From Basidiobolus meristosporus CBS 931.73 (lineage: Eukaryota > Fungi > Basidiobolomycota): a stretch of DNA of 64,000 nt. How positions within the stretch are numbered: the stretch's first letter is position 1; the number at the start of each line of letters is the position of its first letter. Of this stretch, positions 33,405 through 56,969 are shown one piece after another. The position numbers and the translations under genes are program-made. Below the pieces are notes generated by a model. That model worked only from the letters and a program-made list of their open reading frames with translations, had not been told where the DNA came from and made no database searches. The stretch spans positions 1 through 64,000 of the forward strand of contig MCFE01000302.1 of assembly GCA_002104905.1 (NCBI GenBank), in the 5' to 3' direction.

Positions 33405-34788
33405 CCCTATCAGAAATAATTAGGTCCCTCAGGTGGATCCAATCCTGATCAACCATCAGGATCCTGCAATGAGACCATGATGATGCTGGCAGCTTGGAAC
33501 TATTAACCCTCTACACAATCTTATGACAGGATTGTGATGGTGTTTTTCTGATTTTACTGCCAAAATAGAGCTAAAACTTGATGGTGTTTTAGCAGTCTTA
33601 TGACAAGAATTGCATGGCATTCCAACAGTCTTGATGCACTCTATATTTATTTGAGCAGACCTAGCTGGCTACTGCATCCAATTGCCTTAAATGGCATGAT
33701 ACTTGACAGTGTTCAGATGGCCTCATTGCAAACCTTTGTTGGCATTATTATGGTAGTGTGGTGGCCTACAATTGGTACTGGATAATGCTATGGTTCCAAT
33801 ATGCCAAATGGTATTTCCTATTTCTACCTCCCCTTGTGACATTCATATTTCCACTGCAGAGTCACCCCTCTCTATTTGCTTACCCACTACTACCATGAGT
33901 ATTTCACATAGAGTTTAAATCAAACAAAACCATGGCCTCCTGGTTACTAACAGCATTTATCTTGCAAGCATATTCTTGATTGCTGCCACTTTTGCCATAA
34001 ATACCTCTTGAATATCTGCAAAGAACTTCTGGGTATTGAGCCAATAGACTTGTTCCATCATACCGTGCCAGGGCACGCGGCGCGATCCGTGGTTGCAAAG
34101 AACGATTGGGCGCAATATTATAGCTACCAGAAGGCAGGATCATTCTTGGACAATTTCACACTATGCGGGACAATCTTGCACACTATGGCACAATCTGACA
34201 CAATGAGGTTGGCGCGGATAATTGCGCCAACTCGTAATGCTTGCATCACGTGCGCGATTGGATACCGCTATAATGGCAGGTAAAATCCGGTATTTGGATA
34301 TGTTTCTTTAATGTAAATGGAAATAAATGTGTATCACACTATAAACTACACTGATACTTACCATTTTGGTTACCCTCACTCCAATTGGATGGTATCTCAG
34401 TGGTTAATTGGTCCAAAAGTATCCTGAAGCTGGCAGCCCCCAATTGGCTCATTGACTACTGAAAAAGCTACCTGATTCGCCATCAAATACCCCATTTTGC
34501 CCATTGAGCAAGTAAATCCCTGATCCTAGTGATTGGGCAAGGTGTCATAGCTAGCACGCAAGCAATCGTGTAGGTGCAAAACAAATCCAATAGCTGCACT
34601 GGTATTACAGATGACGTATATATATGCAGGGTGTTTATTTATAGGGGTTCTGTCTCAAATGTGAGATGACCTTGATATTACTTATATCAAAAATTTGATG
34701 ATCACTGATTTGCGATGGCTCGATTTGGATCGCAAAAAAAAAGGGTTGTCGGGATCATTACAAATGTGAGCGATTCAAAGCAATCGCA

Positions 34789-36030
34789 TCATCTTCTCCT
34801 GGGTTTTTTTCTCACAGGGATTACTACTGAAGCATTTGGTAGTGACTCACTTTGCACACCTATACTACTTCCTGGCTGACTATCATCTTGGCTACTTGTG
34901 TATTTGTAGTCAGTATTTTGCCTCCTAGTTGATGAGTGCGATGCTGCAGCTTGGCCGCGCTGAATTGCTCCGACTGAACCAACTGAACCAACTGAACCGG
35001 CCTGTAGTGCCACACGCTGACGTGTTCTTTTATTTGCCAAGGGCTCCGGTGGTTGAGGCACTTCATGTTGGTCATCATCAGTCAGTTCACCAGAAGTAAC
35101 TTGCTGATGGTCAGGCAAAACGGCACGCGCAGGCACGCCTTGACATGTTGAGATGGCCCTTGGCTGAGTTCAATGTGATGCCGCATGTTGATGCGACTTG
35201 GTCCGCTCCAATGGACTTGTGTCTAAATGAGCAGTTTGGCGAGTTCTGGTAGTTTTGCTCTGAAGCGTGCGCGTTGACTTGACGCGGGGCGTTCTGGTAA
35301 AGGGTGTTGGCGTGGTCTGGACTGACGTGCGCTGGCGCGCTGTGGTTGCAAGAGATGGTAGGGAATCCAGCAAGGCGTGCTGGCGCGATCTGGACAATGT
35401 TACTCGCGGTCTGTATTCTTCCTCCTGAAGCTCACCATCTGATTCCTCAAGGTATTCACTTACCCTCTGTCTGATACTTTGGAGCTGTTGCCTGGATGAG
35501 TCCTGTGTATATTGCTCTTGGAAGCCACTTAGCTCTACTAATATATCACGTAGTACATTAGTCATTTGAGGCAAAAACTCATTCAAAATCTCTTTGGTTC
35601 CCAAAGTTGAGGCACGAACGGATGCGTCCGGCCTGTACTGTGCAAATTGCGCGCGAAATTGTTCCCGCGTGGCTTCCTCGTCAAATCCCCTCACTCTCAG
35701 CTCATTCTTGATTTCAATACTTGTCTTGTTATATATCTTTTTACATACATCGGCTGGCATCTTGATGTAGAACTCATGCCACAGCTTTCTACTCATATTC
35801 TTCCATCTTTGTCAACTCTCTGAGGTATCTAGTTCTGCTAGATTAATCAGTAGTGCCCAAATATCTGTATGAAGGCTCATCATAGACACTTGGGCCATAC
35901 TAAAATCATTTGGCAAGAACTCGAAAGGATCCAACATCGACTTTTCTGGTCCGGACCGCGCTTGTGAGCTGGGGGATGGGTTTTGTCTGGGTTGTACTAA
36001 AGATGAGTTGAGACTTGGTATGGGGACCAT
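34789..36030 (-). pseudogene. Transposon ORF2, putative Myb/SANT-like (trihelix) DNA-binding partner; two in-frame TGAs or introns
   Basis: ORF-track entries 35812-36030, 35170-35796 and 34789-35136 lie in one frame separated by single TGAs; ELRVRGFDEEATREQFRAQFAQYR resembles trihelix domains; ends with NLS-like PVRKKPRRR. Confidence 0.6.
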
Positions 36031-36389
36031 AGCAACGGATTTGGATACTTATACAGCAGTATATTGGCATCAACCTGGTCTTATATGAAATATATATGAA
36101 AACTAAAGTGATTGTTGAATTTTCCATATATTATGCATGATGCATCTCGGATGGCGTTGACATGGATCAGATCACATCAATCGCAGATTTCCTATTTGAT
36201 TATAGACCTATGATTAAAGCATCAATAAAAGTACCAATGCATTGTTTGCGGATGATTTTTGCGACATAATGATGGGATACATGGCAATTGATGGAGATTT
36301 AACCATAATGTGTTAAAAATCAGATAAATAACGCAGATCACGCCAAATCAATTCAAACCGCCTCCATACAATCATCCATCAATTTTAAT

Positions 36390-37274
36390 ATGACTTACTC
36401 ATCTGAATGGTCTTTTCTCATCAATCCCATCACTACCACTGGATTTCCTTTTGACACACTGGAGGAGATCTATTCCAAGTACTGTGGACCATCAACCCCA
36501 ATTTACTCAAGGAGATCCCTTGTTAAGCTTCTCTGCTATTACAAGAACTATTGCCCTACAAGGTTTCATCCCACCATCCATGGCAACAAAAGTCCTAGAA
36601 GCTTTCATTCCCAGCTGACAGCAATGGAGAACCACCTTGCAGAGGGTATGAATGACTTAGAGCAAGCTTGGAATACTAGGTTCAGAAGCTCCAATAGACT
36701 TCCATATCCCAGAGTGTTCAGCAACAGGTTCCATATCAGGAGTATTTTGGATACCTTCCCAGTGAGGATTAACAGACCTTCTAGAGGGCAGAGGCACTTT
36801 TATTCTGGCAAGTACAAGGCACACTGTGTGAAGTTTCAAGCACTGTCTGACATTGAGGGTAACATCATCTGGTTTAGTGGGCCATTTGCTGGAAGTAGGC
36901 ATGACAAAGCACTCTGGGTAGAGAATCATCCTGAATTCAGTAGAGGGGAGAAATGTATGGCAGACTTGGCCTATATAGGAGAGGATTGTCAGAGATTAGG
37001 ATGTATTACAGCTTATAGGAAGCCAAGAAATTGTGTGCTTAGCAGGAAGCAGAAGCTCTACAATGAGATATTTAATCATTTCAGAGTAAGGGTAGAGCAC
37101 ACATTTGGATATCTGAAGAGATTCAGCATATTGGCAGGTAAATACAGAGGAAAGTCATATATAGGAGAAAACAGCAGAATAGGTAAAATAGTTAAGATAC
37201 TTATCAATACACAGTATGTTCATACAAGAAGACATCCACTGAGAGAAATGTGTCTGGAGCATTATGAAGAGTAA
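36390..37274 (+). CDS. DDE transposase (DDE_Tnp_4, Harbinger/IS5-like), intact 294 aa
   Basis: ILDTFPVRINRP, FYSGKYKAHCVKFQ, GPFAGSRHD, MADLAY, FRVRVEHTFGYLKRF catalytic motifs. Confidence 0.92.
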   Translation: MTYSSEWSFLINPITTTGFPFDTLEEIYSKYCGPSTPIYSRRSLVKLLCYYKNYCPTRFHPTIHGNKSPRSFHSQLTAMENHLAEGMNDLEQAWNTRFRSSNRLPYPRVFSNRFHIRSILDTFPVRINRPSRGQRHFYSGKYKAHCVKFQALSDIEGNIIWFSGPFAGSRHDKALWVENHPEFSRGEKCMADLAYIGEDCQRLGCITAYRKPRNCVLSRKQKLYNEIFNHFRVRVEHTFGYLKRFSILAGKYRGKSYIGENSRIGKIVKILINTQYVHTRRHPLREMCLEHYEE

Positions 37275-40200
37275 ATAAAGCAAGGAAAGCACTATTCTGA
37301 GCAACATAAGTAAGATTGAGTAAAATTACCAGTAACTGTATCATACCACTGGCATCATGGTAGAAATTATAGTGCCAGATAGTGCCGTAGAGTGCCAGAT
37401 TGATCCGGCACTATAAACCGGCTGGCACTATGTGGCACTATCCAACGGAACAAGTCTAATATATTCCTTTGCCCTGCTGGATTCTAGTCCCCCTTATAGG
37501 TGCATTCTGGCTCTTGTTTGTGTGAGCTCAGCAATGGATGGTGAGGAAGCTGACTTGTGACCAAGAGAAACCTGGCATACTTTGGTAAAGATATACTATT
37601 AAAAATTGTGTGCTTGTTGTGCCCAAGTCACTTTGCATTAGGCAACTTATTACACACACATTGAGGCTGCTTAGCTTCTCAATGCAAAAATTCTGTCCTT
37701 GCATTTGTATTGCTGGATATGTATATGAATGTTGATGGGGCCTATGAGAAATACACTGGGTAGCAGATACTCTGTAATATCTGGCCAATTCATTCAAATC
37801 TTGCTGGTATCTTGAAGGACTCAATTAGCCTGAAATATCTCAGGTACAACTAGGTGATCAATATAGGGATATTGTTGAAAAGCAGATGTATTACTCCCAG
37901 AGGAAAGCTCTTGCTCCAAAAGATACCATCTTTCCAAAGTTTCTCCAGTTTCTAATTAACTCAATATTCTGCCCAATTGCTTATAGCTTGCCAACTTTGC
38001 TGCAATTGCATGCTTACTTTAGTATGTTCTCTATGTGGGAAGCTGATGCTTATAGTGTTGGTGTTTGTATAATAATAATGAGTGTGAATTATAGAGTAAA
38101 TCCCTGGGATCTCACACATTTGACAGCAATACTATCCATTGTGCCCAGAAAAGCTGGCTATCTTGCCAATGGACAGGGTATCTCCAATGCCAATAATAAT
38201 ATGCACTTTGATATGATGGCTATTTACTGTTATCCTGCTGGAAAGCCTACAAAATTCATCCAACAGTGGATACAGGTAGCTATCCAGGTTAGACAGTGAT
38301 ATGGGCCCAGATACCGGTGAGACTACTATCAGATTTCTGCTCTGATACCATAAGACAGGTGGTAGATTAAGGTTGATGAGAGTCAGCAGCTGGCACAATT
38401 TGCTGGCAGAGTAATTGTTCACTCAGAATCCATCAAGTACCTAGGCAAAGGTATGGTCATACATGCCTTTATAGTAGCCCTTGCATCTTAGTTGTTTGTG
38501 GTGATTGCCATCAAACATATCAAAATGTTTGTGCTTCATTTATGCTGAGTGCAGTACTTCATAGTTTAAAAATATTTGTTGAACTGCATAAGCTTCTCTA
38601 GATGGGGTATTACTGGAATATATCTGGAGTGTGAGCAATATATTCCTTCAATTATGGTTGATTCCTGACAAGTTGTGCACCTTGCAACTATGGCATTTCC
38701 TGATGTCAATGCCATGCAACTGTTGACACTTGCTTGTATCAGAATGGTGTCTGGGTCATATGTTGCCAGCTGCATGATGGTTTCCATTTGTACCACATAC
38801 ATGGTAAGTAACATTCTGGAGTGATTTTAGCAAGAAGCAGGAGTAAATTCTCAAAGCCCCATTACTGATATTAGTGCACATACACAACTTCTCTAGCCAC
38901 AACATTACATCATTCACCAGTAGATGGATTACTGGGCTCACTTGGCTCCATAAAGTATTCTTGGCATTTTTTTCACAGGTATTGTCTCATTGCAAATTGG
39001 GATTTTGCTAGGCTTATATAGTGTAATGTTGTTGGGGGAGATAGGCTCACAATCCATCAATGAGCCTTATTCTTCAGAGCTATTGCTCTGTGTGCTATAT
39101 TCAGAAGGCTATGGTGAGCCTTAAGGCATCACAAACTCACCTGACTCAGTTTGCACAAGGTCATAAATACAGCTAGGTACCTTTATGGAAGTATCAAGTG
39201 GCTGGCAAGATATTGCTGGTACAGTAGTGACTGATGAATGATTAAATATGACTTGTGTTGCAAAACACTGGTTTTGATCCATGTGATACTACCTATGCTG
39301 TCTGCATACTGCATGGCCAAGAAGCTTGTCACAATAGCCACATGGTCTTTTTTCTCTTCTCTGAAGATGTCGGGTCAAAGTGGTCTTCACCCTGGGGCAA
39401 ACAGGCTTAAACTCAACAAAACAATAGACTTGTTCCATATACCATGCCTGAGCATGCGCCACAATCCATGGTTGCAAAGAACAATTGGGTGCAATATTGC
39501 AGCTATCAGTAGGCAGGATTGCTCTTGGAAAATATTACACCATGTGGGACAATCTCTCACACTATGGCACAATCTGACACAATCAGATTGTCATAGATGA
39601 TTGCACCAACTTGTAATGTTTGCATCACAAGCACAACTGGATACCACTATTGTGGTAGGTAAAATCCAGTATATGGATATGTTTCTTCAATGTAAATGGA
39701 AATAAATGTGTATCACACTATAAACCACACTGATACTTACCATTTTGGTTACCAATACTCCAATTGGATGGTATGTCAATGGTTGATTGGTCTAAAAGTA
39801 TCCTGAAGCTGCCAGCCCCCAATTGGCTCAATGGCCAATACACAAGCCACCTGATTTGCTGTCAAATATCCCATTTTGCCCATTGAGCAAGTGAATCCCT
39901 GATCATAGTTATTGGACAAGGTGTTGTAGCAAGCACATAACCAATTGTGTAGGTGCAAATCAGATCAAGTAGTTGCACTGGCATTACAGATGATGTATAC
40001 ATATGCATGGTGTTTATTATATGGGCTCTGTCTCAAATATGAGACCACATTGATATTACTTATAACAAAAATTGGCATAGCCCTTGTTTGAGCTTGATGT
40101 AATGTTACATATTGACACAACTTGACCTGCTCAAACAAACTTGTGTCTAAATGAGCAGTTTGGTGAGCTCTGGTAGTTTTGCTCTGAAGCACACACATTG

Positions 40201-41924
40201 ATCTGAGGCACATTGACTTAATGCAGGGTGCTCTTGTGAAGGGTGTTGGCATAGATTGGACTGATCTGCACCTGTGCACCAACATTGGAAGGGATGGTAA
40301 GGAATCCAGCAAGGCATGCTGGTGCAGTCTAGACACAATTGCTTGTGGTCTGTGTTCTTCCTCTTGAAGCTCACCTTCTGATTCCTCAAGGTATTCACTT
40401 ACCCTCTGTTTGATGCTGTGGAACTGTTGCCTTCATGAGTCCTGCTTATATTGCTCTTGAAAACCACTTAGCTCTACTAATAGACTGTATAATACATTAG
40501 TCATTTAAGGAGAAGACTCATCCAAAATCTCTTTGGCTCCCAAAGTCAAGGCACAAACAGACACATCAGGCCTGTACTGTGCAAATTGCATGTAGAGTTA
40601 CTGGTATACAGCTTCCTCATTGAATCTCCTCACTCTGGGCTCATTTTTGATTTCAATACTTGTCTTGTTATATATCTTCTTACATACTTCTGCTGCCATC
40701 TGGATGTAGAACTCATACCACAGCTTTCTACTCATATTTGTTGATATCTGTCAACCCTCTTAGGTATCCTGTTGTTCTAGATTAATGAGTACTGCCCAAA
40801 TATCTGTATGAAGACTCATTAAAGACACTCAGGCCATACTGAAATCATTTGGCAAGAACCCAAATAGATCCAACATCAACTTTTCTGGTCCAGAGTGTGC
40901 TTGGGAGCTGGGGGATGGGTTTTGTCTGGGTTGTACTAAAGATGAGCTAAGCCTTGGTATAGGGACCATAGTAATGGATTTGAATACACATGCAGTAGTG
41001 TGCTGATATAAACCTGGTCTTATATGAAATATATATGAAAACTAATGCAATTGATGAATTATCCTTATATTATGCATGATACATCTTGGATTGCATTGAT
41101 ACAGATCAGATCACATCAATTGCAGATTTCAAATTTGATTATAGGCACGCAAATAAATCATCAATAGAATCACCAAGTCATTATTTGAGGATGATTTTTG
41201 CAACATAATGACGGGATACATGGCAATTGATGGTGACTTAATCATAATGCATGGAAAAGCAGATAAATTAAGATGATTGTGCCAAAGTGATTCAAATCAC
41301 CTCTATTTGATCATGTACCAATTTTGATGTAACTTACTTATTGGAATGGTCTTTTCTCATCAATCTCATCACTTCCACTGGATTTCCTTTTGACTCATTG
41401 AAGGAGGTCTATACCAGGTACTGTGGACCATCTACCCCAATCTGCTTGAGGAGATCCTTTGTTAAGCTTCTCTTCTATCACAAAAGCTATTGCCCTACAA
41501 GGTCTCATCCCACCATTCATGGTAAGAATTTCCTAGGAGCTTTCACTCCCAGTTGACAGCAATGAATAACCACCTTGTGGAGAGTATGAGCAAATTAGAG
41601 CAAGCTTGGAATATTAAGTTCAGAAGCTCTAATAGACTTCCATATTGCAGAGTGTTCAGCAACAGGTTCCATATGAGGGTATTTTGGATACCTCCCCAGT
41701 CAGGATTAACAGACCTTCCAGAGGGCAGAAACACTTTTATTCTGGAAAATACAAGGCACACTGTGTGAAGTTTCAAACACTGTTGGACATTAGCATAGCA
41801 TCATCTGGTTTAGTAGGCCACTTGCTGGAAGTAGGCACAACAAAGCACTCTGGGCAGAGAATCATTCCAAATTCAGTAGAGGGGAGAAGTGTATGGCAGA
41901 CTTAGCTTAAGTAGGAGAGGATTG

Positions 41925-42273
41925 TGTTGTAAGAGTCTTGGAGATATTGGAAGTGATTGGGAGAACAAGTAGATTATGTGGTTTTCACTTAATGATTTAT
42001 TGAATGTAAAAGTAGTATTTATACTTTTACCTGGTCTTGACATTACAAACACGTAGAATAGGTTAAGGAAGGTCCCAAGAACATGTGTGCAAAGTTTGGG
42101 GCTGTTTGGAAAACTTTGAGAATTTTCATGTTCTGGGTACCTGGTATTTTAGTGAAAATATTCCAAGTAAATCCCAACAAGGGATTTGGTCAGTATTCTC
42201 TAGGATTTGAAGGTGATGATCTAAGTGACTAAGTTAGATGAATATTTAAGTGGAAATACAAATTTTTACAACA
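41925..42273 (-). repeat. Copia 3' LTR
   Basis: TGTTGTAAGAGTC...TTTTTACAACA; 11 differences from the 5' LTR by manual count; adjacent to PPT (ctcccac on + strand). Confidence 0.95.
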
Positions 42274-43163
42274 CTCCCACTCAGCTAAATGTTCATACTG
42301 ACTAGTCCTAATTTTGACCTAAGATATTCAAACTTGTCTCTAGCTAATGGTTTGGTAAATAAGTCTGCAAGCATTTCATCTGTAGGACAGTAAACTAAGC
42401 TAACTAAGTTATTCTCTATAGCTTCTTGTATGAAATGATGTCTAATATCTATGTGCTTGGTTCTAGCATGAAAAGTTGGATTTCTACCTAATTGTATACA
42501 TCCTTGATTATCTTGAAATAAAGTAATAGACATTTTTTGACATAGGCCTTAATCTGTAAAGAGCTTTCTTAACCACATTGCTTCTTTTGTAGCTTCACAG
42601 GCTGCCATATACTCTGCCTCTTTAGTAGAAAGTGCTACGGTTGGTTGCTTTCTTGAATTCCATGAAATGGCTCCTTTACAGTAAAGAAAGGTGTATCCTG
42701 TGGTGGATCTTCTGTCTTCCAAATTTTGTCCCCAATCAGCATCAGAGTATCCCACAAGATCCTGTTCTGAATCCTTATAAGTGTATCTTAAGCAGATATT
42801 AGCAGTTCCTTTTAGGTGTCTAAAAATCCGCTTAACTGCTGCAATATGATCAGATCCATAGTTCTGATTATGTTGGCTGACAACTCCCACTGAATATGAG
42901 ATATCTGGACGTGTTCCAAGCATGATATACATCAGACTGCCGACCATAGATTGATAAGGAAAGTCAGGGCTTTCAGATGGCACCAAGCTCTCTTGATTTG
43001 GTTGAGTTTTGACCAAGTCAAGGTTTGTCTCCATTGGGGTAGCTGCCGGTTTACAGTCTTCCATTTTGTACTTCTTTAGTATATCTTGAATATACTTGGA
43101 TTGGCTTAGGGTAATAGTCTGGGTACTTCTGTCTATGGAGAACTTAATCCCTAAGTAGTAACT

Positions 43164-43899
43164 AGACTTGTTCCATTGGATAGTGCCACATTGAGCCATG
43201 AGTGCCAAATAGTGCCATTGCATGCCAGAGAGGCATAGCAGACCTAAATTTGGCCCCAGAGTGTGAAACATAGCTCTTCATCTTCATGCAAAGCAACCCC
43301 TGCGTTTCACCCATTATGATGGAGAAAATCCATTTTTTGATCTTTTTTTTTTGGATCAGTGTTGTGCAGGATGTGTAAGAGGACAGAAGGACTGAAGACA
43401 TGCATCTGGTACTCAATACCCATGGCACTCTGAATCTAGCTTCTGTAGCTTGCATCATGTCACAAAAATGAATGGCACTATCTTGGTCCACTGGTACTAT
43501 CTGGCACTATATTTAAATATTAGCCCTAAAGTAAGACCTATACAAAGCACTTATAGTGCCATATAGTACCAGTGGACCAAGATAGTGCCATTCATTTTTG
43601 TGACATGATACAAGCTACAGGAGCTAGATTCAGAGTGCCATGGGTATTGAGTACCATATGCATGTCTTCAGTCCTTCTGTTCTCTTACACATCCTGCACA
43701 ACACTGATCCAAAAAAAAAAGATCCAAAAATGGATTTTCTCTAACACAATGGGTGAAAGGCAGGGGCTGCTTTGCATGAAGTTGAAGAGCTATGTTTCAC
43801 ACTCTGTGGCCAAGTTTAGGCTCACTTGGCCTCCCTGGCATGCTATGGCATCATTTGGCACTCATGGTTCAATGTGGTACTATCCAACGGAACAAGTCT
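43164..43899. mobile_element. 736-bp foldback MITE with Pangu-type termini, inserted in the copia RT
   Basis: ACT TSD (43161-43163, 43900-43902); 347-bp inverted arms and a 42-bp spacer; removing it restores SNLGELSYYLGI in the RT. Confidence 0.93.
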
Positions 43900-46800
43900 A
43901 CTAAGTTCTCCTAGATTGGACATCTTGAACTCCTTGGATAGGCTGGATTTAGTTTCTTCCAATGTTTCAAGGTTAATGGCGGCTATAATAAGATCATCCA
44001 CATATAGAGCTAATAGAACTGGATTTGCTCTATCTGGCTTATAGTATATACCATAGTCAGCATTACTTCTTTTGAAACTCAAAGATTCCAAATAAGAATC
44101 TATCTTGCAATTCCAGGCTCTTGGTGATTGTTTGAGACCATATAGTGACTTTTTAAGCTTGCAGACCAAATGGGGGTTTTCTTGGTCAACAAACCCATCA
44201 GACTGGTCCATATACACCTCCTTGTCAAGTTCTCCATTCAAAAATGCAGTTTTTACATCCATTTGATGAATAAAAAACTTATATTTGGCTGCAATAGCCA
44301 ATATTAATCTGATGGAATTAAACTTGGCTACCGGTGCAAAGGTCTCAGTATAGTCAAGTCCTTTTGTTTGAGAGTATCCTTTGGATACAAGTCTTGCTTT
44401 GTATCTTTCAATTGTACCATCAGCCTTGTATTTTGTCTTGAAGACCCATCTGCATCCAATTGATTTTTGGTTGATTGGTAATTTGACTTAGTCCCAAGTT
44501 TGATTTTCCATCAGGGCCTGATATTCCTCAGTCATTGCAGATCTCCAAAACTTTGTCTGAGGGCTATTTAGGGCCTCTTTTACAGTCTGGGGTTCATCAA
44601 TATAGACTGAATAGGCATAGGCTAAGTTTGTACCCTCATTGATATAGTAATTTGGGCTATTTCTTGTCTGATTTGATCTCTGGGCATTTGATACTGGAAT
44701 GATAACTTCTGGGATATTCCTGGGCACTGATTCTGGCTGAACCATGGTTGTAGAGTCCTCTGGAGTGAAAAAATTTTCATTGTTTTGCTCTGATTCAATC
44801 CTGACAATTGGTGGACTTGAGATCTAATTTTTGTCATCATCTGATGTCATTTTTTGTGAAATTTTTGAATTTTCATCAAACAACACATCCCTGGACTTGA
44901 TCAGCTTCTTTGCTTTGGTATTGTAGAGTCTGTATGCCCTACTCTCACTACAGTAGCCCAAAAATATGCATTTTACACTTTTTGGCTCAAATTTTGACTG
45001 ATTTCCGGCCAGTTTTTTGGCATATGCTGTGTACCCAAATATTCTTAGATGTTCTGCACTTGGTCTGTATCCATACCATGCTTCAAATGGAGTAGAATCA
45101 CAAAGTATTCTGTTATAACTCCTATTTTTCAGGTATTCAGCAGTGGCAACTGATTCCTCCCAAAAATCATAGGATAATTTTTGATCATGGATCATAGATC
45201 TTGCCATATCAGTTATTGATCTGTTAGCTTGTTCTGCTACTCCATTTTGCTGTGGGGAGTATGGTACAGTAGTCTCTTGCTTTATCCCATGAACTTTGCA
45301 GAAGTGGATGAAGAGTTTTGAGGTATATTCTCCACCATTGTCAGAGTGTATTTTCTTGATTTTTTCACCAGTTTCTCTCTCCACCATGGCTTTAAACTCC
45401 CTGAACTTAGACAGAGCTTCTTCCTTTCTCTCCATGAAGTAGACCCATGTGTATCTTGTATAATCATCAATAAAAGTGATTAAATACTTCATCCCGCCTA
45501 AGGATGAATTTTGCATAGGTCCACACAGATCTGAGTGAATTGGAACTAATTTTTTCTTAGTTTTGATTAACCCAGAGCTCTTGAACAATTGTCTGGCTTG
45601 TTTCCCATATATGCAGGCTTCACAGTGCTCCAAACTAGCTGGGGGATCAATTTTCACTGCAGAAATTAGCTGATCTTTGATCATTTTACGCAGATAATCA
45701 AAATTGATGTGCCCAAATCTCCTGTGCCAAAGCATTGGTGTTTCTTCATTTAAGTTACTTATATTGGCTTCCAAATATGATGGAATATAAGTCAACTTGT
45801 ATAGATTTTGATCTCTGATGCCCAAAGCAATATGGGCACCATTTTGATCAGTGATCCTGCATCCAGAATTGTCAAAACTGAAACTGAGTCCTTCTGCTGT
45901 GGCCTTGCTTACAGAGAGTAGGTTCTTGGCTATTTCTGGTACATAGAGTACTTCTTTAAAGGTCAGTGTATGGCTTCCTTCACTGCTTCTAAGGTTTACT
46001 TGGATAGTTCCTTCTCCCACTGCATCAAGTGTTCTATTGTCACCCATGAAAACCTTCTTAATTGGAATTTCTTGATATTGGGTAAAAAGTTCTTTTTGGT
46101 GTGTAAAGTGTTGAGATGCTCCAGAATCAATATACCACGTCTGAGAATCCTTGTTTGTGGTCATATTTAGTGCAGATATGAATAGTCTATCTTCAGTTGT
46201 TGCAGCATTTCCATATTCAGGCTTCTTTTCCTGATTATCTTTCTTTTTGAGACATCAGTCTGATGTGTGTCCTTTCCTTTTGCAGTAGTTACAAAACAGG
46301 TTGCTGTTGCCTTTGTAGGGTCTTGGGTACCTCCTGTGTTGGTTATCATTGCTTATTAAAGCATTTTCTTCTTCCTTCTTATTTGCGCTTGATTTTCTTA
46401 ATTCTTCATCCAGGAGCCTTCCATATACATAATTTAAGGTCAAATCTTCAGTTCTGGACTCTAGGGCTGATACAAGGCCCTGAAACTTGTCTTTCAGGCT
46501 ATTAAGGATGGTAACTATCACATCCTCATCAGTAGTTGGTACACCCACAGATTCCATCTCATCTACCAGCAGGGTAATTCTGTTAATTAGATTTTTCATT
46601 TCTTCTCCTAGCAGCATCTTTGTAGTAAAGAATTTTTGTCTCAGATACATTTTCTTGGCAGCTGAACATGACTGGTAGGTGTCTTCTAATGCTTTCCAGG
46701 CATTCTTTGCCGTTTTTGCTCTTGAGCATTGAATTAGCAATTTGTCCTTGACATTAAGGCAAATGCAGTTAAAGGCACTTTGTTCTTTCTTCTGGTACTT

Positions 46801-46997
46801 CAAGGCTTCCTCTCCCACGTTTTTTGGAGGGCATTCTTCCCCCATTACAATATCCCAAAGGCCTCTTTCTTGTAGCAGCATCTTCATCTTCACCTTCCAC
46901 ACTTGGTAGTTAGATCCATCCACTTTTCAGCAGAGGGAAAATTCCAGTAATAGCAGTAGTAGACATTGCAGAGAGTGACAGCTTGGGGCTCATAACC

Positions 46998-47346
46998 TGT
47001 TGTAAGAGTCTTGGAGATATTGGAAGTGATTGGGAGAACAAGTAGATTATGTGGTTTTCACTTAATGATTTATTGAATGTAAAAGTAGTATTTATACTTT
47101 TACCTGGTCTTGGCATTACAAGCACATAGAATAGATTAAGGAAGGTCCCAAGAACATGTGTGCAAGGTTTGGGGCTGTTTGGACAACTTTGAGAATTTTC
47201 ATGTTCTGGGTACCTGGTATTTTGGTGAAAATATTCTAAGTAAATCCCAACAAGGAATTTGGTCAGTATTCTCTAGGATTTGAAGGTGATGATCTAAGTG
47301 ACTAAGTCAGATGAATATTTAGGTGGAAATACAAATTTTTACAACA
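46998..47346 (-). repeat. Copia 5' LTR
   Basis: Same sequence as 41925-42273; followed on the - strand by the PBS. Confidence 0.95.
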
Positions 47347-48148
47347 GATTGTCAGTGATTAGGACATATTACGACTTGTAGGAAGCTAAGGAATGGTGTG
47401 CTTAGCAGGAAGCAGAAGCTCTACAGTGAGATATTCAATTGATCCAGAGTGAGAGTAGATCATACATTTGGATATCTATAGAGATTCAGCATATTAGCAG
47501 GCAAATACAGAGGAAAGTCATGTACAGGAGAAAACGGCAGAATAGGTAAAATAGTTAAAATACTTATCAATGCCAGTATATTTGTACAAGAAGACATCCA
47601 CTCAGAGAAGTGTGTCTGGAGAATTATGAGGAGTAAATAAAGCAAGAAAAGAACTGTTCTGAGCAACATAATTAAGATTGAGAAAGATAGAAGTAACTGT
47701 ATCCTACCATTGGCATTATAGTAGAAACTAGAGTGCCAGACCAATCCAGTACTATAAACAGGCTGGCACTATGTGGCACTATACAATGGAACAAGTCTGA
47801 TATTGTTATATCACTTTTTTATCAATATTTTAGGAATTCAAGACAGTCTTGTATTTTCCTATGAGAAATTATTGTGATGATCCCATCAAAAGGCTGTCAC
47901 AGATTTGAAGTTCTGTGACTAAGCGGTACTGATCCTGTCAGGACACTGTGAAGAGACCATTGAAAAACAATTGCACCCATGATTTCACAAAAACTTGTTC
48001 AGAATTTTTCATCACAGTAGTATATAAGTGGCTTTTGACTGGTTCCCTGCCAATATGCTGACTTTCTGATACCAGACACTTGATAGTCTCCTACATTTGT
48101 GAGCAATGATTGGCTGTTGCCTCTATTTCACACTCCTTACTTCCTGAC

Positions 48149-48497
48149 TGTTGGAAAAATTTGTAATTCCACCTAAATATTCATCTAACTTAGTCACTTG
48201 GATCATTACCATCAAATCCTAGAGAACACTGACCAAAATTCCTTGTTGGCACTTACCTAGAATATTCTCACAAAAATACCAAGTACCTGGAACATGAAAA
48301 TTCTAAAGTTGTGCAAACAGCCCCAAACTTTACACACATGTTTTTGGGACCTTCCTTAGCCTATTCTATGTGTTTGTTATGCCAAGACCATGCAAAAGTA
48401 TAAATTCTACTTTTATATTCAATAAGTCATAAAGTGAAAACCACATAATCTACTTATCCTCCCAATCACTTCCAATATATCCAAGGCTCTTACAACA
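48149..48497 (+). repeat. Solo LTR of the same copia family, opposite orientation
   Basis: Reverse-complement match to 41925-42273; no clean 5-bp TSD. Confidence 0.88.
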
Positions 48498-48599
48498 GAC
48501 TCAACCATTTCTCTTACTTGTCATGTGTACAAGCTGATTTAGTTCTGCTGAAACTTCAGTTGTATCTCAATTGCCAATTGTATTGACCTATACAAGTCC

Positions 48600-51500
48600 C
48601 TATACCCTACACTAACATTAAGCCCAACCCCACACTCACAAGTATCTCCATTAAAATCCACCAATCAATAAGTATTTCTGCTGTAACACTTTGCTTCCAT
48701 GACTCTGGTGGGAGCCCAACAGCTTTATGCCACTGTTCATTCACTGGTTCCCACACATCCTGGCCTTCAGCCAGCACAGCCAGGTCTAGCACCTCTTCTG
48801 CCAGTCTTTGCAATAAATCCTTGCAATATTCAAGTGCATTTTCTTGAGCACTACTCTTGAAGAAGTGCTGCAACCTCTTGGTGTACCTATTAATGTTCCA
48901 AAATTCAACTGAAGGTATTGTGATAGTCTTACAAGTTCTTGATGTTGTAGCCTTGTCTGTTGGTGGGATCACCACTCTGTCAACAATGGAGGATGTGGAG
49001 GCTGTGGTAGACAAATTGCCTTTCTTTGCAAACCCATTGACCTTACTGGATTGTAGCTCAACTGGCTGCACTTCCAAATCTTGTGAAAACAGCTATTTTC
49101 TTGTTGGTAATTTTTCTTTGCTATGATGGAATTCAGTCTGTTCTGGGCTTGTAACATTAATTGGCAAGAACTGCAATTTTTTTGCATGCTTCCCTGTCTC
49201 AGGCTTGAGTAGACATTTTTCCTATTTCCTTTTCCTGTATCACTGCCAGGTCTTTCACTGCTACTTTGTCTGAGTGCTTCTTGTAATGAATACATTTTCT
49301 CCTTGATAAATTCTGTTGTGTTGTATTATGATTATTTTAGGGCTTGTTCTACAATATAGAGGCTAATCAACAATATAAAACAACTTTCAGTAAGCTATTA
49401 CTGAAATAGTTTGTTGGGAGTTTGATATACCAATAGAAGATATAACTTTCACTAATATCCTCAATCTTAGGCTCAAAACATACTATAGACAGTGATTCTC
49501 ACTTCTACAGCAGTGTTCTGACCTTCTGTTGGCTAATGGGCTTATTTACTTTTATAGTAACTTTTACTTATTAGGAAGTCACTTTCCTTTCTGAGAAAAT
49601 ATTTCCTAATATGGAAATTTTGAACTCCCCTTTAACCTAAAGGGGTATCTTACAGTGTTCTCTAAAGTGGCCTTTACACTAAAGGGGTGCCTTAAAGGGG
49701 TCTCTAAAGGGGTCTTTGGACTAAAGGGGTGTCCAAAGGGGTGTCTTTAGAGTAAAGGGACTTCTTAGCGGGGACTTTTCCAACAGAAAAGTAGTGGTTT
49801 CTTGTAGAACTTAGATTGGATTCTTGTGAGCTTTGCAGTCTCTTTACTGATGTAATACCAATCAAAGTCAGAATACTCAACAGTGCAAGTGATGCAGGGG
49901 AAGTCTTATAACCTTTGAACTTGTAATTGTAGTGTGGAGATTCTGGAAAGTGAGGCTCTCTTTTATTTTTCAGCTGGGCAAGTCATATATATGAAATTTC
50001 TGAAGGATCAAAGTGTTTGGGCAATTGCACAAGCAATACATATGATACAAAGCTCAAATCTTGCAGAGTTGCAGATGGGACATAGGCGCAGCACCTTTGA
50101 GCATTTCACGTGATTTGATTGGCTGGTCCAAAAGTTACATGTGATCAAAGTCACCATAGTAATCCTAGCAATAGAGACCTAGTATATATAATAATTGGAC
50201 TCTTTAGGTCATAACTCCTTAAGTACTGCTTCAGATGGGCTGCAATTTGAAACATGTGTTGGCTACTGTGTGTTCTGTATGACATAATATTCCTGGGTGG
50301 ATTGCTTGTCAGGGTCTGGAGTGTTTGTCCTTCAAAGTTTTAAATTCTTGATCTTTCACCTGTGTGTTACAATAGCAAAAAGCAAAATAAAGAAATGAGT
50401 GCAATATTGATTTTGAGATATTGTAGTAATGGAATACTCTCCAATACCACAATTCTTCTCTGACCCATCTGTTTTGGCCTGCTTGTCCCTTGCTAATACT
50501 CTCCTGGCAACCTGATATTTCTTTTCCACTTGTTTCAAGCTCTCAGCTGTAGTTGTGGCAGGCTCCTGAGAAAGCTGCTTATTTTTATCACTGCCAGGCC
50601 CTTCACTGCTACTCTGACTGAGTGCTTCTTGAGTGGTACTACTCTTTTTCCTTGATAAATGTTGTGCTGGTGAATCTGTGTCTGCCTGCTTGTCCCTTGT
50701 TGGCACTCTTCCAGCTACCTGACAACTCTTTGATGCTTGTTTGGAGCTTTTGGCCCTGCATGTAACAGCCTCTTGGGAAAGCTGCTGGTTTTTAGCCACA
50801 GCACCCTTGTTCTTATGCCTTTGATAGTTTCTATTATTCTTAAGATACTTTCTTAGCATACCAATGCTGACCTAAAATCCATTTGCCTGTTTGAATCCAG
50901 GATAATGCTGATGAAGCAAGTCAAGCAAATTTAGCTTGGCCTTGAGTTCTTGATGGTCCAATGGTATGCTGGCCTTAAGGTGATGGCGTGCTAGACTTCT
51001 AATGGTCTCTGGAATATTAGCCCACTCTTTATTATTGCACTTGGCAGCTTCATAGATCTACAGTTTCTTTTGATTTTAGGATATGGTATAAACACTGCAT
51101 TGTCTCCCACCCATGCTGTGATAGGCTTTTCTGTGGGCTTTATCTTTGTGCACTGTTATTGTGCTTCAAAGACTGTACAGTGTTCCTGTGCTGTTGCATT
51201 ACATATGGCACAATTCTTAGCTGTGATATTGAGCTACTTGAGTTCCTTTGTTGCAGCAAAGACACTGCTTTTTCTACCTGGATTATCAATTGCTCCACAT
51301 GAATTATTTGCTCATGTTATTTCTGGACTATTTCCTGATTTTTCTGGGTCATTGTATCTATCCTATTGGCCACTGCACCTAATTGCATCATTAATGCATT
51401 GGTATGAGCTGACAACATACTTGCTAATATGGGTGGTGGTGATATTATGACTGCCACTTGCTGGTCTTTAACTGAGGGTATTGTGTTTTCTACTTTCTCA

Positions 51501-51760
51501 TCTACCTGAGCAAAATGATCAGCTTGCAGCTCAGCAGAGGTACTTGTTTGCCTACTTGACCAAGTGCCTGAGGAATCCACATTATTACCTTCAGTGGGCA
51601 CACTTTCAACATGGCCTATTTTGGATAAAGCCCAGCCTGCTGCACTAAATGTCAAAGCAAGCTCTTGTCTACCTGTTCTTCTGCCACCATCAGCAGTGGG
51701 GTTTGGTCTGGAACTAGGTGACTCTTATCTATTTTTTGGTGGCATATATATGGAAGTGAG
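48600..51760 (-). pseudogene. Degenerate repeat-associated ORF remnants (probable CACTA accessory gene)
   Basis: 50680-51790 is homologous to 55290-56410; internal duplications at ~49230-49310/50580-50670 and ~50480-50580/50680-50790; many stops. Confidence 0.5.
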
Positions 51761-51806
51761 TCAAACCAAAGGGGAAATGGTGCTACATATATGTATATAT
51801 ATATAT

Positions 51807-52624
51807 AACCACCTTGCAGAGGGTATGAATGACTCAGAGCAAGCTTAGAATACTAGGTTCAGAAGCTCCTATAGACTCCCATATCCCAGAGTGTTCTGCA
51901 ACAGGTTCCATATAAGGAATATTTTGGATACCTTCCCAGTCAGGACTAACAGACCTTCTATAGGGCAGAGGCACTTTTACTCTGGCAAGTACAAGGCACA
52001 CTGTGTGAAGTTTCAAGCACTGTCTGACATTGAGGGTAACATCATCTGGTTTAGCGGGCCATTTGCTGGAAGTAGGCATGACAAAGCACGGTGGGTAGAG
52101 AATCATCCAGAATTCAGTAGAGGTGATAAATGTATGGCAGACTTAGCTTATATAGGAGAGAATTGTCAGAGATTAGGATGTATTATAGCTTATAGGAAGC
52201 CAAGGAATGGTGTGCTTAGCAGCAAGCAGAAGCTCTACAATGAGATATTTAATTATTTCAGAGTGATGGTAGAGCATACATTTGGATATCTGAAGAGATT
52301 CAGCATATTGGCAGGTAAATACAGAGGAAAGTCATATATAGGAGAAAACAGCAGAATACGTAAAATAATTAAGATACTTATCAATGCACAGTATATTCAT
52401 ACAAGAAGACATCCACTGAGAGAAATGTATCTGCAGTAGTAGGAAGAGTAAATAGAGCAAGGAAAGCACTACTTTGAGCAACTTAAGTAAGATTGATTAA
52501 AATTACATGTAACTCTATCCTACCACTGGCATTATGGTAGAAATTATAGTGCCAGATGGTGCCATAACAATCTGGCACTATAAACAGGCTGGTACTCTGT
52601 GGCACTATCTAACAGAACAAGTCT
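51807..52624 (+). mobile_element. Third Pangu-type copy, 5'-truncated (3' transposase plus right TIR)
   Basis: ORF 51891-52439 is nearly identical to the C-terminal part of 36390-37274; ends GAACAAGTCT|AAT. Confidence 0.9.
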
Positions 52625-54304
52625 AATATATTTGGTGAAAGATCTGAACAGACCTTGGTCAATGGCAGCTTTAGAAGTGATAACACCATCTTCTTGATTA
52701 TATCCAGTGTAAGACTGTATCATAACAACCAAGTTAACCCTGTTGGGTTGTTCCTCCATCTTTAAGGTGTCACACATCAAAGTATTAACAAGAGGAACTT
52801 GTGCATATTCAAAGAAATTGATGCCACCAGAAGTAATAGTAGAAGGAAAGTAAAGTTGCATACCTTGCTTAATTATGGCAGAAGCAAAAACATTACAAAC
52901 TGACTGGCTGTGATTGGCATAAGGAACCATAGAGGCAGAAATACCCACCATAACCCAAGGATGAATTTGCATTTGATTATACATTAGGTAGTGGCCATGA
53001 TACCCAATGTCACCCAAAAAGACTTGAGATTGCTCATCAAGATCAACAAATTCTATCTTACCAGTATCAAGAAGTTGAGACCAAGAGAGGCAAGTTAATT
53101 TGTTCCAATCTAAGGGGGGACCACAAAGTTTAAGCAAAGGTCTCATAAATTGGCCAGAAGAGGATTTAACATAGAAGATGCAGGGGATGTACCAGCATAA
53201 AACCCAACCATGGATTCATCAAAAAGTACAAGATACTTAACGTCACAATTATCATAGGATAAGTTTTCTTTCAACTAACTCCAGACATCAGAAAGTTGTG
53301 TGTCAGAAATGGTAGGAAGAAGGCAAGTGAGGGCAAGATGTTTGATAATACAAATGTTTTTACCCCTGGGAACTTCACACATATAGACATATCCTAACTA
53401 GGATGAATGTGGAGAAGCTGTTGACCTTCTTTAAGCATATTGACAAGTTCATCTTCCAAAAGAGTTCAAAGTCAATATTTGGAATTGGCGACTTTAATAG
53501 CACAAGTTAAGATTTGGTTGAGAAGGAGATTGGAAGCTTTACCAATCTTGTTACCATAATTGTCACAGTCCATAGGTTGAAGGAGACCCATTGCAGTCAT
53601 GAGAGCAAGATAAGTCAACAATATTGGGAGAGTGGGAGGGGAGGTATTTAGATTCAAGAATGCTTAGTTCATCAGGGGAGATGGTATTATCAGATTTGGT
53701 CATAGAAACTAAAAAGATAGTAGAGACAGTATTAACATGAGATCTGTTGGTGACAAGAAGGGCAAGGATCTTGTATATTTTACCAAAGCCAAAACCTGAA
53801 CTATTTATGACCCAATAAATAGAAAGACATTTGAGACCATTAAGATCATTGTGGGAGGAGGAGACATCAAAATAGAGATCAACAGAATTATTGACACAGA
53901 CACGTAAAGGAAGTGTGGAACCTTTAAGGCAAGTTTTGGAAGAGACAAGATTATCAGCAACAGAGATGTAAGGGATGAAGATGTTGTGTAATTCTTGAAT
54001 AAGAGCAACACATTTGATGCCATCAATGATGTAATAACCTTTGTTGTTGATGAGGGGAATATTGCAGACAGGTTTGCCATTGCAGTGGATGTGATGTCCT
54101 TTGTAAGTAAGTTGATGAATGATAGCATCATCAGAAGTTATTTTTAGGGGATGAATTTATGCCATAACCAAATTTATCTTCAAGTTTGGATTTGAATATT
54201 TCTAAGATGTGAGTATGGGAGCGCAAGATGTTAGCATCAAAACTGTATTCAAGGAAGAATTTTTGTAAATGGTTGGAGTAAAGATCAAAGAGGGAGGGAG
54301 GCAT
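52625..54304 (-). pseudogene. Compact, intronless DNA-directed RNA polymerase beta (Rpb2-like) pseudogene, probably virus- or plasmid-derived; 3' part removed
   Basis: Collinear Rpb2 motifs across frameshifts: DAIIHQLTY, NIP..KGYYIIDGIKCVALIQE, DCDNYGNK, EVP.GKNI.IIKHLALT, GQFMRPL, IEFVDLDE, IHPWVMVGISASMVPYANHSQSVCN, YTGYNQEDG, IDQGLFRS. Confidence 0.85.
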
Positions 54305-56969
54305 AATAGGGTGCTATATATTAGTGGTAGAGCAAGGATGAAGAGCTGCAAAATAATTCTAAGTAATAAGTTTAAATGTAATTAGTCAGCACAAGTAAAT
54401 TTAAACTGGGACTAATTGTGGTTTTGAAATTAAAGGCAAACTATCATGTTACCAAAAATACAATCTATTAATAGGGTTATGTCAGAGTTGTTTGATGAAT
54501 CAAAGGTATATTTGTCAGAGCCATTAGCAACAGGAGGGCCATATATAAGAAGATTGGTAATGTATATATACAAAGGGTAGACAGATCCAAAGGGTTTGTG
54601 CATTACAACAGTAAGAAGTCCAGAGGGGCTAATGTTATGATACAGTGGATTATATGAATTGCACAAGGGGAGACAGAAAAAGGAAAAACCTTTTGGTTAA
54701 CTAGAATAGTAACATTATACAGTACTAGCGGTAGGCTGCCATATTGCCACTGAAATACTGTCAGGTTTTTTGCCGTATAAGGCAATTGGATGTCCTGGCT
54801 GGTTGGATCCAATTAAAGTAGTTGTAGAGTGCAATAAAATTGCAACAATGCCATGCAATTATCATCACAGCACCTATCAAATCTTGTCAAGTTTTATAAC
54901 ATTATTGGGCAGTAAAATTAGCAAAACACTGTTGTAATCTTGTCATACAATTGTTAAGAGGGTCACTAATTCCAAGCTGTGTAACATAAGGATACCATAT
55001 ATGGTATGAAAGTGTTAGGGATAATGATGTGGCTTTGTCATGTGTTACATGTACTGGAGCAGGTACTTGCCTAATATAGAAGCACTAACATCAAGTAATC
55101 TTACATAAAGTGAGGGATAACATATGCAATAAGGTAAGCAGTTGTGATAATCAGCCAGCTTATGGGAGAGTCTGATCAAGTAAGACAAATAGGATAAAAC
55201 TAATATAAGGGTAGTAAAAAATGGGGTAGTAGAAAATATTGGAATGAGCACATCTGTCAGTGGGTGTCACTGTGACCCCACTATACATTGTTTGCCTGCT
55301 TGTCCCTAATTGGCACTCTTCCAGCTACCTGACATCTCATTGATGCCTGTCTGGAGCTTTTGGCTCTGCTTCTAACAGGCTCTTAAGGAAGCTGCTGGTT
55401 TTCATTTGTGGCACCCTTGTTCTTCTGCCTTTGGTAGTTTCTGCTATTCAAAGGATACTTTCTTAGCATACTAATGCTGGCCCAAAATCTGTTTGCCTGC
55501 TTGAATCTTGGATAATGCTTATGGAACATGGCAAGTGCATTCTGCTTGGCCTTGAGTTCCCAATTGTCCCATGATATGCTGGGCTTAAAGTGATGGCATG
55601 CTAGACTTCTGTTGGCCTATTGAATATTAGATCCCTCTTCATTATTGCACTTGATGGCTTCACAGATCTACAACATCTTTTGATTCTTAGGCTTTGGTAT
55701 AAGCATCAGATTGTCTCCCTCCCAAGCTGTGATAGGTTTTTCTGTGGGCTTTATCTTTGGTCACAGTTGTTGTGCTTCAATGACTGAACATTATTCCTCT
55801 GCTGTTACATCAGAAAATGACTCAATTCTTGTATGTGAGATTGATTTACTTGAGTTCCTTCCTTGCAGCAAAGATACTGCTTTCTCTACCTGGAATATTG
55901 ATTGCTCTGCATGTATTATTTGCTCATCCTGTTTTTGGACTATTTCCTGATTTCTCTGGGCTATTGCACTACCCTATCTGCCACTGCACCTAATTGCTTA
56001 ATTAATGCTTTGGTATGAGCTGGCAACATACATGCCAATATGGGTAGTGGTGATGTTATGACAGCCACTTTCTGGTCTTCAACTGAAGGCACTGCACTTG
56101 CTAAATTTTCATCTACCTGAGCATAACAGTCGGTTTGCAGCTCTGCAGAGGTTCTCAATTGCCTACTTGACTCAGTGACTGAGGAGTCTGCAATATGACC
56201 TTCAGTGGGCACACTGCTAGCATGGCCTTTGTTGGATGTAGCCCTGCTTGTTGCACTCAATGTCAAAGCAAGCTGCTGTCCAACTGTTCTTCTGCTGCCA
56301 TCAGCAGTGGGGTTTAGTGGGGAACCAGGCAACTTTACTTTATTTTTTGGCAGCATATATATGGAAGTGAGTCAAACCAAAGGGGAAATGGTATTACATA
56401 TACATGTGTATACAGTGCCAAAACTTTATTAGTAATGCTCACTTTGGCAGGTCATCATTGAATCCTACATTGATGTAGGTGCAATGTCTCAAATACAATA
56501 CTGTCTTAAGTTCCCATGAGTATTGACCAAAAAGTGATATAATAGCATTTTGTTGTTGACAGTCAAACTGTTTGCCCTATGGACAAGACTACTTTGATTA
56601 AACAACATAAGAGAAGGGGAAAAAGACCATGTGGCTATTGTAATAAACCTCTCAACCATGAAACATGCAGACAGCATAGGAAGTATCACAAGGATCACGG
56701 CCAGTGTTTTGCCACACAAGTCATATCTGACCATTCATTGGTCACTACTGTACCAACATTATCTGCCTGGCCAGTTGATACTTCTATATTATCACCTGGC
56801 CATCTTTGTCACCTTGCACAAACTGAGTCAGGTGAGCTTGTGATGCCTTTAGGCTAACCTCAACCTTCCAAAAATGGCACACAGAGTGATAGCTCTGACA
56901 AAGATGGTTAACAGATGGATTGTAAGCCTATCTCCCCTAACAGCAGTACCACATATGTGCCTGGTCAAG

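Follow-up and report, generated by a model that had tools for sequence, protein, structure and literature searches.

A decayed two-gene fragment of a probable fundsalphavirus-type element in Basidiobolus and its high-depth counterpart in another sample

Endogenous elements resembling nucleocytoplasmic large DNA viruses (NCLDV) and known as fundsalphavirus have been reported from early-diverging fungi, two Basidiobolus species included, with PolB as the defining marker in the available part of that paper (Gong, Zhang & Han 2020, PMC7017919). In the moss Physcomitrella patens, NCLDV-like regions are described as methylated, silent and devoid of capsid or packaging ATPase, and the authors left open whether they derive from a virus, a helper-dependent element, a plasmid or a transposon (Maumus et al. 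2014, PMC4083422). For the Mycodnaviridae, a contig coverage of about 50-fold in a single strain first pointed to active replication (Myers et al. 2026, PMC13533422). The question whether this small set of genes makes up a complete tiny virus, belongs to a larger virus or represents an element lacking a capsid has stood since 2014. In view of the fungal and moss elements, the original prediction made for the locus presented here, that it marks a possibly undescribed lineage, has to be given up as far as these partly accessible sources go.

We consider this locus to be, very probably, a dead fragment of a fundsalphavirus-type giant-virus-derived element in the Basidiobolus genome, made of the front of a compact Rpb2 gene and the stub of its neighbour. 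The window (the whole stretch of DNA analysed, 64,000 nucleotides) is gene-rich from 1 to 31 kb, with, for example, RPS4, a ribosomal L6 family gene, NAPRTase and GMP synthase as single ORFs, and from 32 to 64 kb it is a block of Pangu-type, Copia, Gypsy and tnp2 family transposons with a CpG observed/expected ratio (o/e) of 0.0-0.16 in 15 of 16 bins. The gene-rich part also holds a 580-codon open frame (16469-18211, minus strand) with 33/102-bp repeat units, a strong strand skew and no Pfam match. Using the 173 ORFs of four relatives as queries, we found no viral genes in the window, PolB included, beyond Rpb2 and the stub. The relic was compared with B. ranarum P0013 (an open frame of 570 residues) and with contigs from runs X4, X5 and X6, which represent one other sample from one study with the same species label and in which about 2 kb of the element were probed. 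Its features are as follows.

52625-54304, minus strand: 5' part (~60%) of a compact Rpb2 gene of viral type, broken (segments 59-69% identical to P0013 by tblastn, with E 7e-100 and 9e-75)
54304-54152, 54147-53629, 53621-53412, 53409-53191 and 53188-52628, minus strand: frame segments of the relic, from its reading frames
53474, 53468, 53400 and 53277, minus strand: in-frame stops, from the reading frames
54304 (ATG), 54111 (LTY), 54060 (IP..GYYIIDG), 53570 (DCDNYGNK) and 53376 (EVP.GKN..IIKHLAL), minus strand: motifs 1 to 5
53155 (GQFMRPL), 52966 (IHP..HSQS), 52705 (GYNQED) and 52663 (GLFRS), minus strand: motifs 6 to 9
53610-53629, minus strand: private deletion 1, ~7-9 codons plus frameshift (P0013 residues 149-157 without match; extra letters at 53610-53617 in the X5 and X6 contigs)
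53399-53412, minus strand: private deletion 2, ~42 codons plus frameshift (P0013 residues 229-270 without match; 135 letters replace 8 in X4, X5 and X6)
53189-53192, minus strand: private deletion 3, ~23 codons plus frameshift (P0013 residues 344-366 without match; 69 letters replace 2 in X4 and X5)

Read from the ATG, the relic thus falls into five frame segments with four frameshifts, four in-frame stops and three private deletions, and 317 of its 478 residues aligned to P0013 are identical. The nine motifs sought (the eight of the original prediction and the N-terminal start) all occur in order, and the last ORF matches Pfam Rpb2_6 (E 2.9e-16), so the broken multisubunit RNA polymerase gene announced on this strand is indeed there. 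To say that nearly every conserved motif is present was an overstatement, as private deletion 2 takes out a conserved stretch aligning to vertebrate Rpb2 456-500 and the part of the gene beyond the cut is absent: a search for the 3' half to the left of the transposon found nothing within the window. The extra letters of the other-sample contigs lie exactly at the three gaps, which are therefore private deletions of the relic, amounting to about 72 residues.

The relic is intronless and AT-rich (36.6% GC), and its CpG o/e is 0.06, versus 0.85-1.15 in four intact Rpb2 relatives and 0.89-0.90 in three host genes; neighbouring transposons have 0.04-0.09. Arginine is its least conserved residue, only 3 of the 17 arginines of P0013 being retained, and 12 of the 17 have become TGY, CAC, CAA or TGA (cysteine, histidine, glutamine or stop), changes of the CpG-transition type. 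The claim that motif deviations are of this type holds for these positions, but one of its examples was ill chosen: the relatives read SARN, not the SVRN taken as reference. The expected decay at CpG sites after integration is borne out by these ratios, and the relic would have decayed by methylation-driven deamination once integrated, methylation being read here from base composition.

The Asp of GYNQED is residue 538 when the relic is read through its frameshifts, in agreement with the predicted codon of about 539. Its equivalent in yeast Rpb2 is residue 837. The N-terminal part had accordingly been called some 300 amino acids shorter, and most of this shortening does come from a compact clade to which the relic belongs, whereas the ~72 residues of the private deletions are a product of decay.

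By its sequence, the relic can be grouped with compact Rpb2s of Basidiobolus, Mortierella/Linnemannia and metagenomic origin, which form one clade. Relatives were sought among 1.84 billion representatives (2782 matches, the best 150 of which were used) and by a profile search (11 matches). Nearest to the relic are P0001 of B. meristosporus (75%) and P0002, P0003 and P0013 of B. ranarum; named members come from B. meristosporus, B. ranarum, M. alpina and L. elongata (P0023), those named for Basidiobolus or Mortierellaceae hosts being P0001, P0002, P0013, P0018 and P0023. Among the matches listed, full-length relatives measure 822-1021 aa and carry the GYNQED Asp at 523-684; in vertebrate RPB2 (P0309), it is found at 792. 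Gaps relative to vertebrate Rpb2 68-103, 128-145, 156-179 and 417-437 are common to the relic and to 9/9, 8/9, 9/9 and 9/9 full-length members, respectively, and residues 827-840 and 875-890 are also absent in 9/9 and 8/9 of them. Beyond the ~72 residues of private decay, the compact form is thus inherited. We take the lost segments to be parts of the protrusion and of the wall/flap, surfaces used by host initiation factors in Pol II structures; if these domain names apply, the clade tells us what portions of its surface a multisubunit polymerase can do without. A predicted model of one member (P0015) folds as a whole Rpb2 (pLDDT 85.7); in a fold search its matches to viral Rpb2s are about as good as those to cellular ones, five of the top eight viral matches being labelled Pithovirus and the second being a mimivirid. 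A further cluster (P0019) comprises 14 near-identical compact Rpb2s from ENA metagenomes; 13 of the contigs concerned have a length of 39-92 kb and are possibly near-complete units of the compact lineage.

Could the relic simply be a decayed duplicate of the host Rpb2, Rpc2 or Rpa2, shortened after duplication? Three deletions are, after all, private to it. It shares, however, only 26% identity with the Rpb2 of Puccinia, 22-23% with the Rpc2 of Nematocida and 19% with the Rpa2 of Halteromyces, as against 69-78% with the Basidiobolus compact proteins; Puccinia Pol II Rpb2 itself is 70-73% identical to five other eukaryotic Pol II sequences. Rows were reduced from 308 to 215 by fill and 80% identity in the larger tree; the smaller one kept 40 of 57 rows. 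The relic falls in the compact clade with a support value of 100 in both trees (22 of 215 and 15 of 40 rows), and the clade stands outside the Pol II clade (96). In AU tests, grouping the compact clade with fungal Pol II, represented by one Rpb2 from Puccinia, was rejected (p=0.002); grouping it with fungal Rpa2, a single long-branch row, gave p 0.56, and grouping it with five viral-type rows without family label (L007, L065, P0062, P0118 and P0122) gave p 0.65, both scoring better than the free quick tree. Since the Pol II grouping is rejected and the other two are not, the tree excludes a Pol II copy and names no sister group. The assertion that the gene is no copy of host Pol I, II or III consequently stands for Pol II; for Pol I, the Rpa2 grouping leaves it to the low identities, as the Rpc2 values do for Pol III. 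As the main deletions are also common to intact genes lying in virus-type gene clusters, we regard a host duplicate as extremely improbable. Scans of viral contigs with P0013, P0016 and P0021 gave no matches, and those with the alignment A1 listed mostly other Rpb2s, 3 of the 80 metagenome loci and none of the 80 viral loci listed being in the clade. Viral and cellular Rpb2 were not told apart by an NCBIfam scan, and a cluster look-up put a name to 1 of the 10 tree anchors intended.

The gene neighbours of intact relatives say more about the kind of element. L081 has PolB, XPG/FLAP, Rpb5, RP1c, Rpb2, D5, TFIIS, UDG, DUF5757 and HET; L082 has Rpb5, D5, Rpb2 and SNF2; L083 has DUF5757, Rpb2, a capping enzyme, SNF2, Rpb5 and a helicase; L161/L164 have RP1n, DUF5757, Rpb2, a helicase and MutS with HNH. 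The NCLDV-like gene set (PolB, D5, SNF2, capping/methyltransferase, RPB2, RPB5 and RPB1) is found in the four intact members taken jointly; the window has Rpb2 and the stub only. Rpb1 is split: a 610-aa ORF of L161 (RP1n) holds Rpb1 domains 1, 2, 4 and the start of 5, and a 348-aa ORF of L081 (RP1c) the rest of domain 5. The Rpb2 ORFs of the four relatives are stand-alone, 862-1021 aa long, and end in Rpb2_7, and the PolB of L081 is of the PF00136 family with an exonuclease, alongside a D5 primase-helicase. Protein-primed PolB forms a separate Pfam family from PF00136. These neighbours support the idea of a streamlined polymerase of the NCLDV type. The other half of that proposal, a yeast-type cytoplasmic linear plasmid such as pGKL2, might seem attractive for a short, AT-rich and intronless relic, the more so as a high-copy form would suit a plasmid way of life; but ORF6 of pGKL2, compared here by description from the accessible part of the source, is a beta-beta' fusion (PMC6211774), and the clade has stand-alone Rpb2s together with separate RP1n, RP1c, Rpb5, PF00136 PolB and D5. 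A pGKL2-type fragment is therefore scarcely conceivable to us.

Two further genes may be mentioned here. The MutS with C-terminal HNH on L164 (18152-20905, minus strand) is of MutS7 type and lies on a compact-clade contig, and the HET-domain gene of L081 (20822-22429, minus strand) adjoins the viral cluster. MutS also adjoins one B. meristosporus viral PolB in Figure S2 of Gong et al., as far as that source could be seen (PMC7017919).

No capsid protein, A32 or VLTF3 was found among the 58 main ORFs scanned from the four partial relative contigs, the scan covering 22.9 kb of a 72.4-kb contig, the whole of one of 15.3 kb, 15.3 kb of one of 18.9 kb and 26.3 kb of one of 51.7 kb. These ORFs comprise a set of 38, 18 out of a set of 23, and a further 2. 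One has to keep in mind that Pithoviridae are described, in the part of the source at hand, as having a divergent capsid protein only (PMC9546926).

On the other side of its ATG, the relic faces the remains of a second viral gene, one of the two new observations made here, the other being the high-depth version in another sample.

54305-54445, no strand assigned: spacer of 141 bp between the two divergent viral genes, spanned by the same contigs in X5 and X6
54446-54640, plus strand: 5' stub of a second viral gene, ~65 codons with one early stop, head-to-head with Rpb2 (match to L081:9132-9911)
54641-54979, no strand assigned: high-copy host repeat bounding the viral piece on the right (65% to 33490-33856; depth jump and 27 loose ends at 54641)

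Among 2529 ORFs, the stub is matched best by L081:9132-9911, which occupies the corresponding place upstream of Rpb2 (E 0.057 with phmmer); the pair score of 59, over a match spanning 44-67 residues of one ORF, was equalled by none of 5000 shuffles, and the ATG-to-ATG distance is 142 in the window versus 75 in L081. That L081 ORF scores 0.95 and 0.94 to Nucleocytoviricota clusters of the Atlas, with DUF5871 on 13% of the members. The stub is thus likely to belong to the DUF5871/DUF2738 family, which presumably has a single-stranded DNA-binding role. Searches of PDB sequences and Pfam gave no function for the L081 ORF, two publications that mention DUF5871/DUF2738 give none, and its single-sequence fold has a pLDDT of 32.5. 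The plus strand is purine-rich over 52625-54640, that is, over both divergent genes and their spacer (GC skew +0.20, +0.40 and +0.33; AT skew +0.14); this skew tracks the strand rather than the gene, and four metagenomic relatives have weak skews only.

The left end of the relic abuts a transposon of the Pangu type. Pangu elements are characterised, in the accessible part of their description, by an ANT target duplication, terminal inverted repeats (TIR) starting with AG, a DDE transposase and a length of ~3.4-3.5 kb (Han et al. 2015, PMC4482050), and the full copies in the window do have AG-starting ends, ANT duplications and a DDE transposase.

50451-52624, plus strand: truncated Pangu (PHIS/Harbinger-type) copy, its right terminal repeat abutting the relic (92% to the 3'-terminal 828 bp of the full-length copy at 34046-37457)
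51849-52439, plus strand: DDE transposase remnant in this copy (DDE_Tnp_4, E 3e-22)
52625-52627, plus strand: AAT, candidate ANT target site of this copy, on one side only
34046-37457: full-length Pangu copy, 3412 bp, with perfect AAT/AAT duplications
39426-47798: second Pangu copy, AAT/GAT, split at ~41925 by a Copia element
41925-42273 and 46998-47346: Copia LTRs, 97% identical, in the second Pangu copy
43164-43899: Pangu-derived miniature element, 736 bp, with two 358-bp inverted arms and ACT/ACT, within the Copia element

The relic end reads GAACAAGTCT|AAT, and 42 contigs have loose ends at 50451. That a Pangu insertion cut the gene, as first proposed, agrees with the Pangu-type end and the AAT at 52625; we found no convincing left TIR in 47800-52000, and the partner AAT is absent. 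Since the copy at the relic, unlike the published Pangu elements (PMC4482050, partly accessible), has no left end, a later deletion or recombination would have taken the rest of the gene. Contigs of X4-X6 run on past 52624 without the transposon. As for CpG content among the repeats, bin 34001-36000 keeps its CpG (o/e 0.73), unlike all other repeats of the window, and bin 36001-38000 is depleted (0.16).

Sequencing runs extend the picture beyond the dead copy. In X1, the likely source run of the window, the relic-like contigs all lie at a depth of 81-142; four match the relic exactly, and another four, which show 29-48 differences, are further diverged copies. No contigs of X3 aligned to the window. 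In the other sample, low-depth relic-like records (14-16 in X4, 12-16 in X5 and 5-10 in X6) coexist with records at 6582 and 8457 in X4, 6522 and 7750 in X5 and 2878-3288 in X6, a ratio over the same stretches of about 390-540 in the three runs, bearing in mind that depth is not equal to copy number. Two high-depth X4 records are 82-84% identical to the relic, and one of them, read by hand, continues the frame beyond the cut as RHVNVCELLG, as in P0001; three high-depth loose ends have 8 CpG in 90 letters versus 4 in 2016 in the relic, and one 1550-nt record at a depth of 3288 covers both Rpb2 and the upstream gene. Transposon-like contigs of X4 lie at 18-25, so the fungal chromosomes are likely at low depth.

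We believe this high-depth, CpG-intact version to be a freely replicating form of the element with reasonable, though not strong, confidence. It is also conceivable, with a clearly smaller chance, that the contigs stem from a recently amplified chromosomal array, from library bias or from another organism's element: all three runs come from one sample and one study, and the depths, which are no copy numbers, concern about 2 kb probed without a single-copy host gene as baseline. Against this speak the similar ratio across the three runs, the kept CpG and continued frame of the high-depth ends, and the X4 relic-like and transposon-like contigs at 14-25, which make it likely that the fungus itself lies at that depth. 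Starting from a freely replicating form, one may speculate further that the lineage replicates extrachromosomally, at hundreds of copies per genome and without a capsid, as a cytoplasmic element that descends from Nucleocytoviricota, resembles a plasmid and has a stripped RNA polymerase; we hold this to be doubtful for now, and such an element would represent a second route to the yeast killer plasmid way of life.

Taken together, a giant-virus-derived element would have integrated into the Basidiobolus genome, where CpG methylation probably silenced the copy; afterwards three deletions eroded it, and a Pangu transposon and a second repeat cut it off. In its living state, the element would transcribe its own genes in the cytoplasm with a trimmed polymerase (an Rpb2 of ~820-1020 aa, Rpb1 in two genes and Rpb5), a capping enzyme of its own and an SNF2 helicase, and would replicate by PolB and the D5 primase-helicase; a high-copy, likely replicating form is present in the one other sample of the same label. 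The relic alone is one more Rpb2 copy among the viral fossils reported from Basidiobolus; the high-depth sample makes the question of virus or capsid-less element testable from existing reads.

How does this element compare with the known systems? It is likely of the fundsalphavirus/moss NCLDV-like type, a link drawn from the names of the hosts, the gene set and the gene order. As far as the accessible text goes, fundsalphavirus elements share with it the hosts (B. meristosporus, B. heterosporus and Mortierella/Linnemannia), the gene set of RPB2, RPB5, RP1n/RP1c, D5, SNF2, methyltransferase and PolB, and broken copies lodged among retrotransposons (PMC7017919). The L081 order POL..RPB5..RP1c, RPB2-D5-TFIIS-UDG, HET is also that of the M. 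verticillata element in the part of Gong Figure S2 at hand. In contrast, the Basidiobolus entries in the accessible part of that paper are PolB, D5, RPB5, RP1n and SNF2, with no RPB2 and no Basidiobolus row in the RPB2 tree; a shortened Rpb2 is not described there, and the elements are known as endogenous relics only (PMC7017919). In the literature on fundsalphavirus, on Basidiobolus with Nucleocytoviricota and on broader topics, most subscription journals being outside this scope, we found no report of a replicating member or of a trimmed Rpb2 of the lineage.

An NCLDV-derived sister lineage separate from fundsalphavirus, or one related to Mycodnaviridae, would be in line with a clade so deep that the relic is 25-40% identical to its members outside Basidiobolus, and with trees that contain no labelled fundsalphavirus Rpb2 or PolB. 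Hosts, gene set, split Rpb1 and gene order nevertheless match the published elements in the parts of these sources at hand, which makes this alternative unlikely. Mycodnaviridae, compared by description, resemble the locus as integrated fungal giant-virus DNA; unlike it, they reach up to 350 kb, have a major capsid protein, lie near Imitervirales/Algavirales and live mainly in zoosporic hosts, according to the accessible text (PMC13533422). We thus retain the fundsalphavirus-type assignment. The moss regions have the same compact gene set with SSB, FLAP, UDG, TFIIS and a split RP1, but a plant host, a size of at most 13 kb and 16 genes, and no replicating form reported there (PMC4083422).

The pGKL1/pGKL2 plasmids are, in the accessible part of their description, likewise cytoplasmic fungal DNA elements with their own reduced multisubunit polymerase, capping enzyme and helicase, and differ from the stand-alone Rpb2, Rpb5 and D5 of the compact clade by the beta-beta' fusion (ORF6), an ORF7, terminal proteins and an affinity with poxviruses (Sykora et al. 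2018, PMC6211774). In the visible part of Gong Figure S2, the Zancudomyces element has LysM/ChtBD1/GH18 zymocin-alpha-like neighbours and elements of anaerobic fungi have ChtBD1 (PMC7017919), cargo that recalls the yeast killer plasmids. From what its description offers in the accessible part, pGKL2 may serve as a possible model for the working of a capsid-less form.
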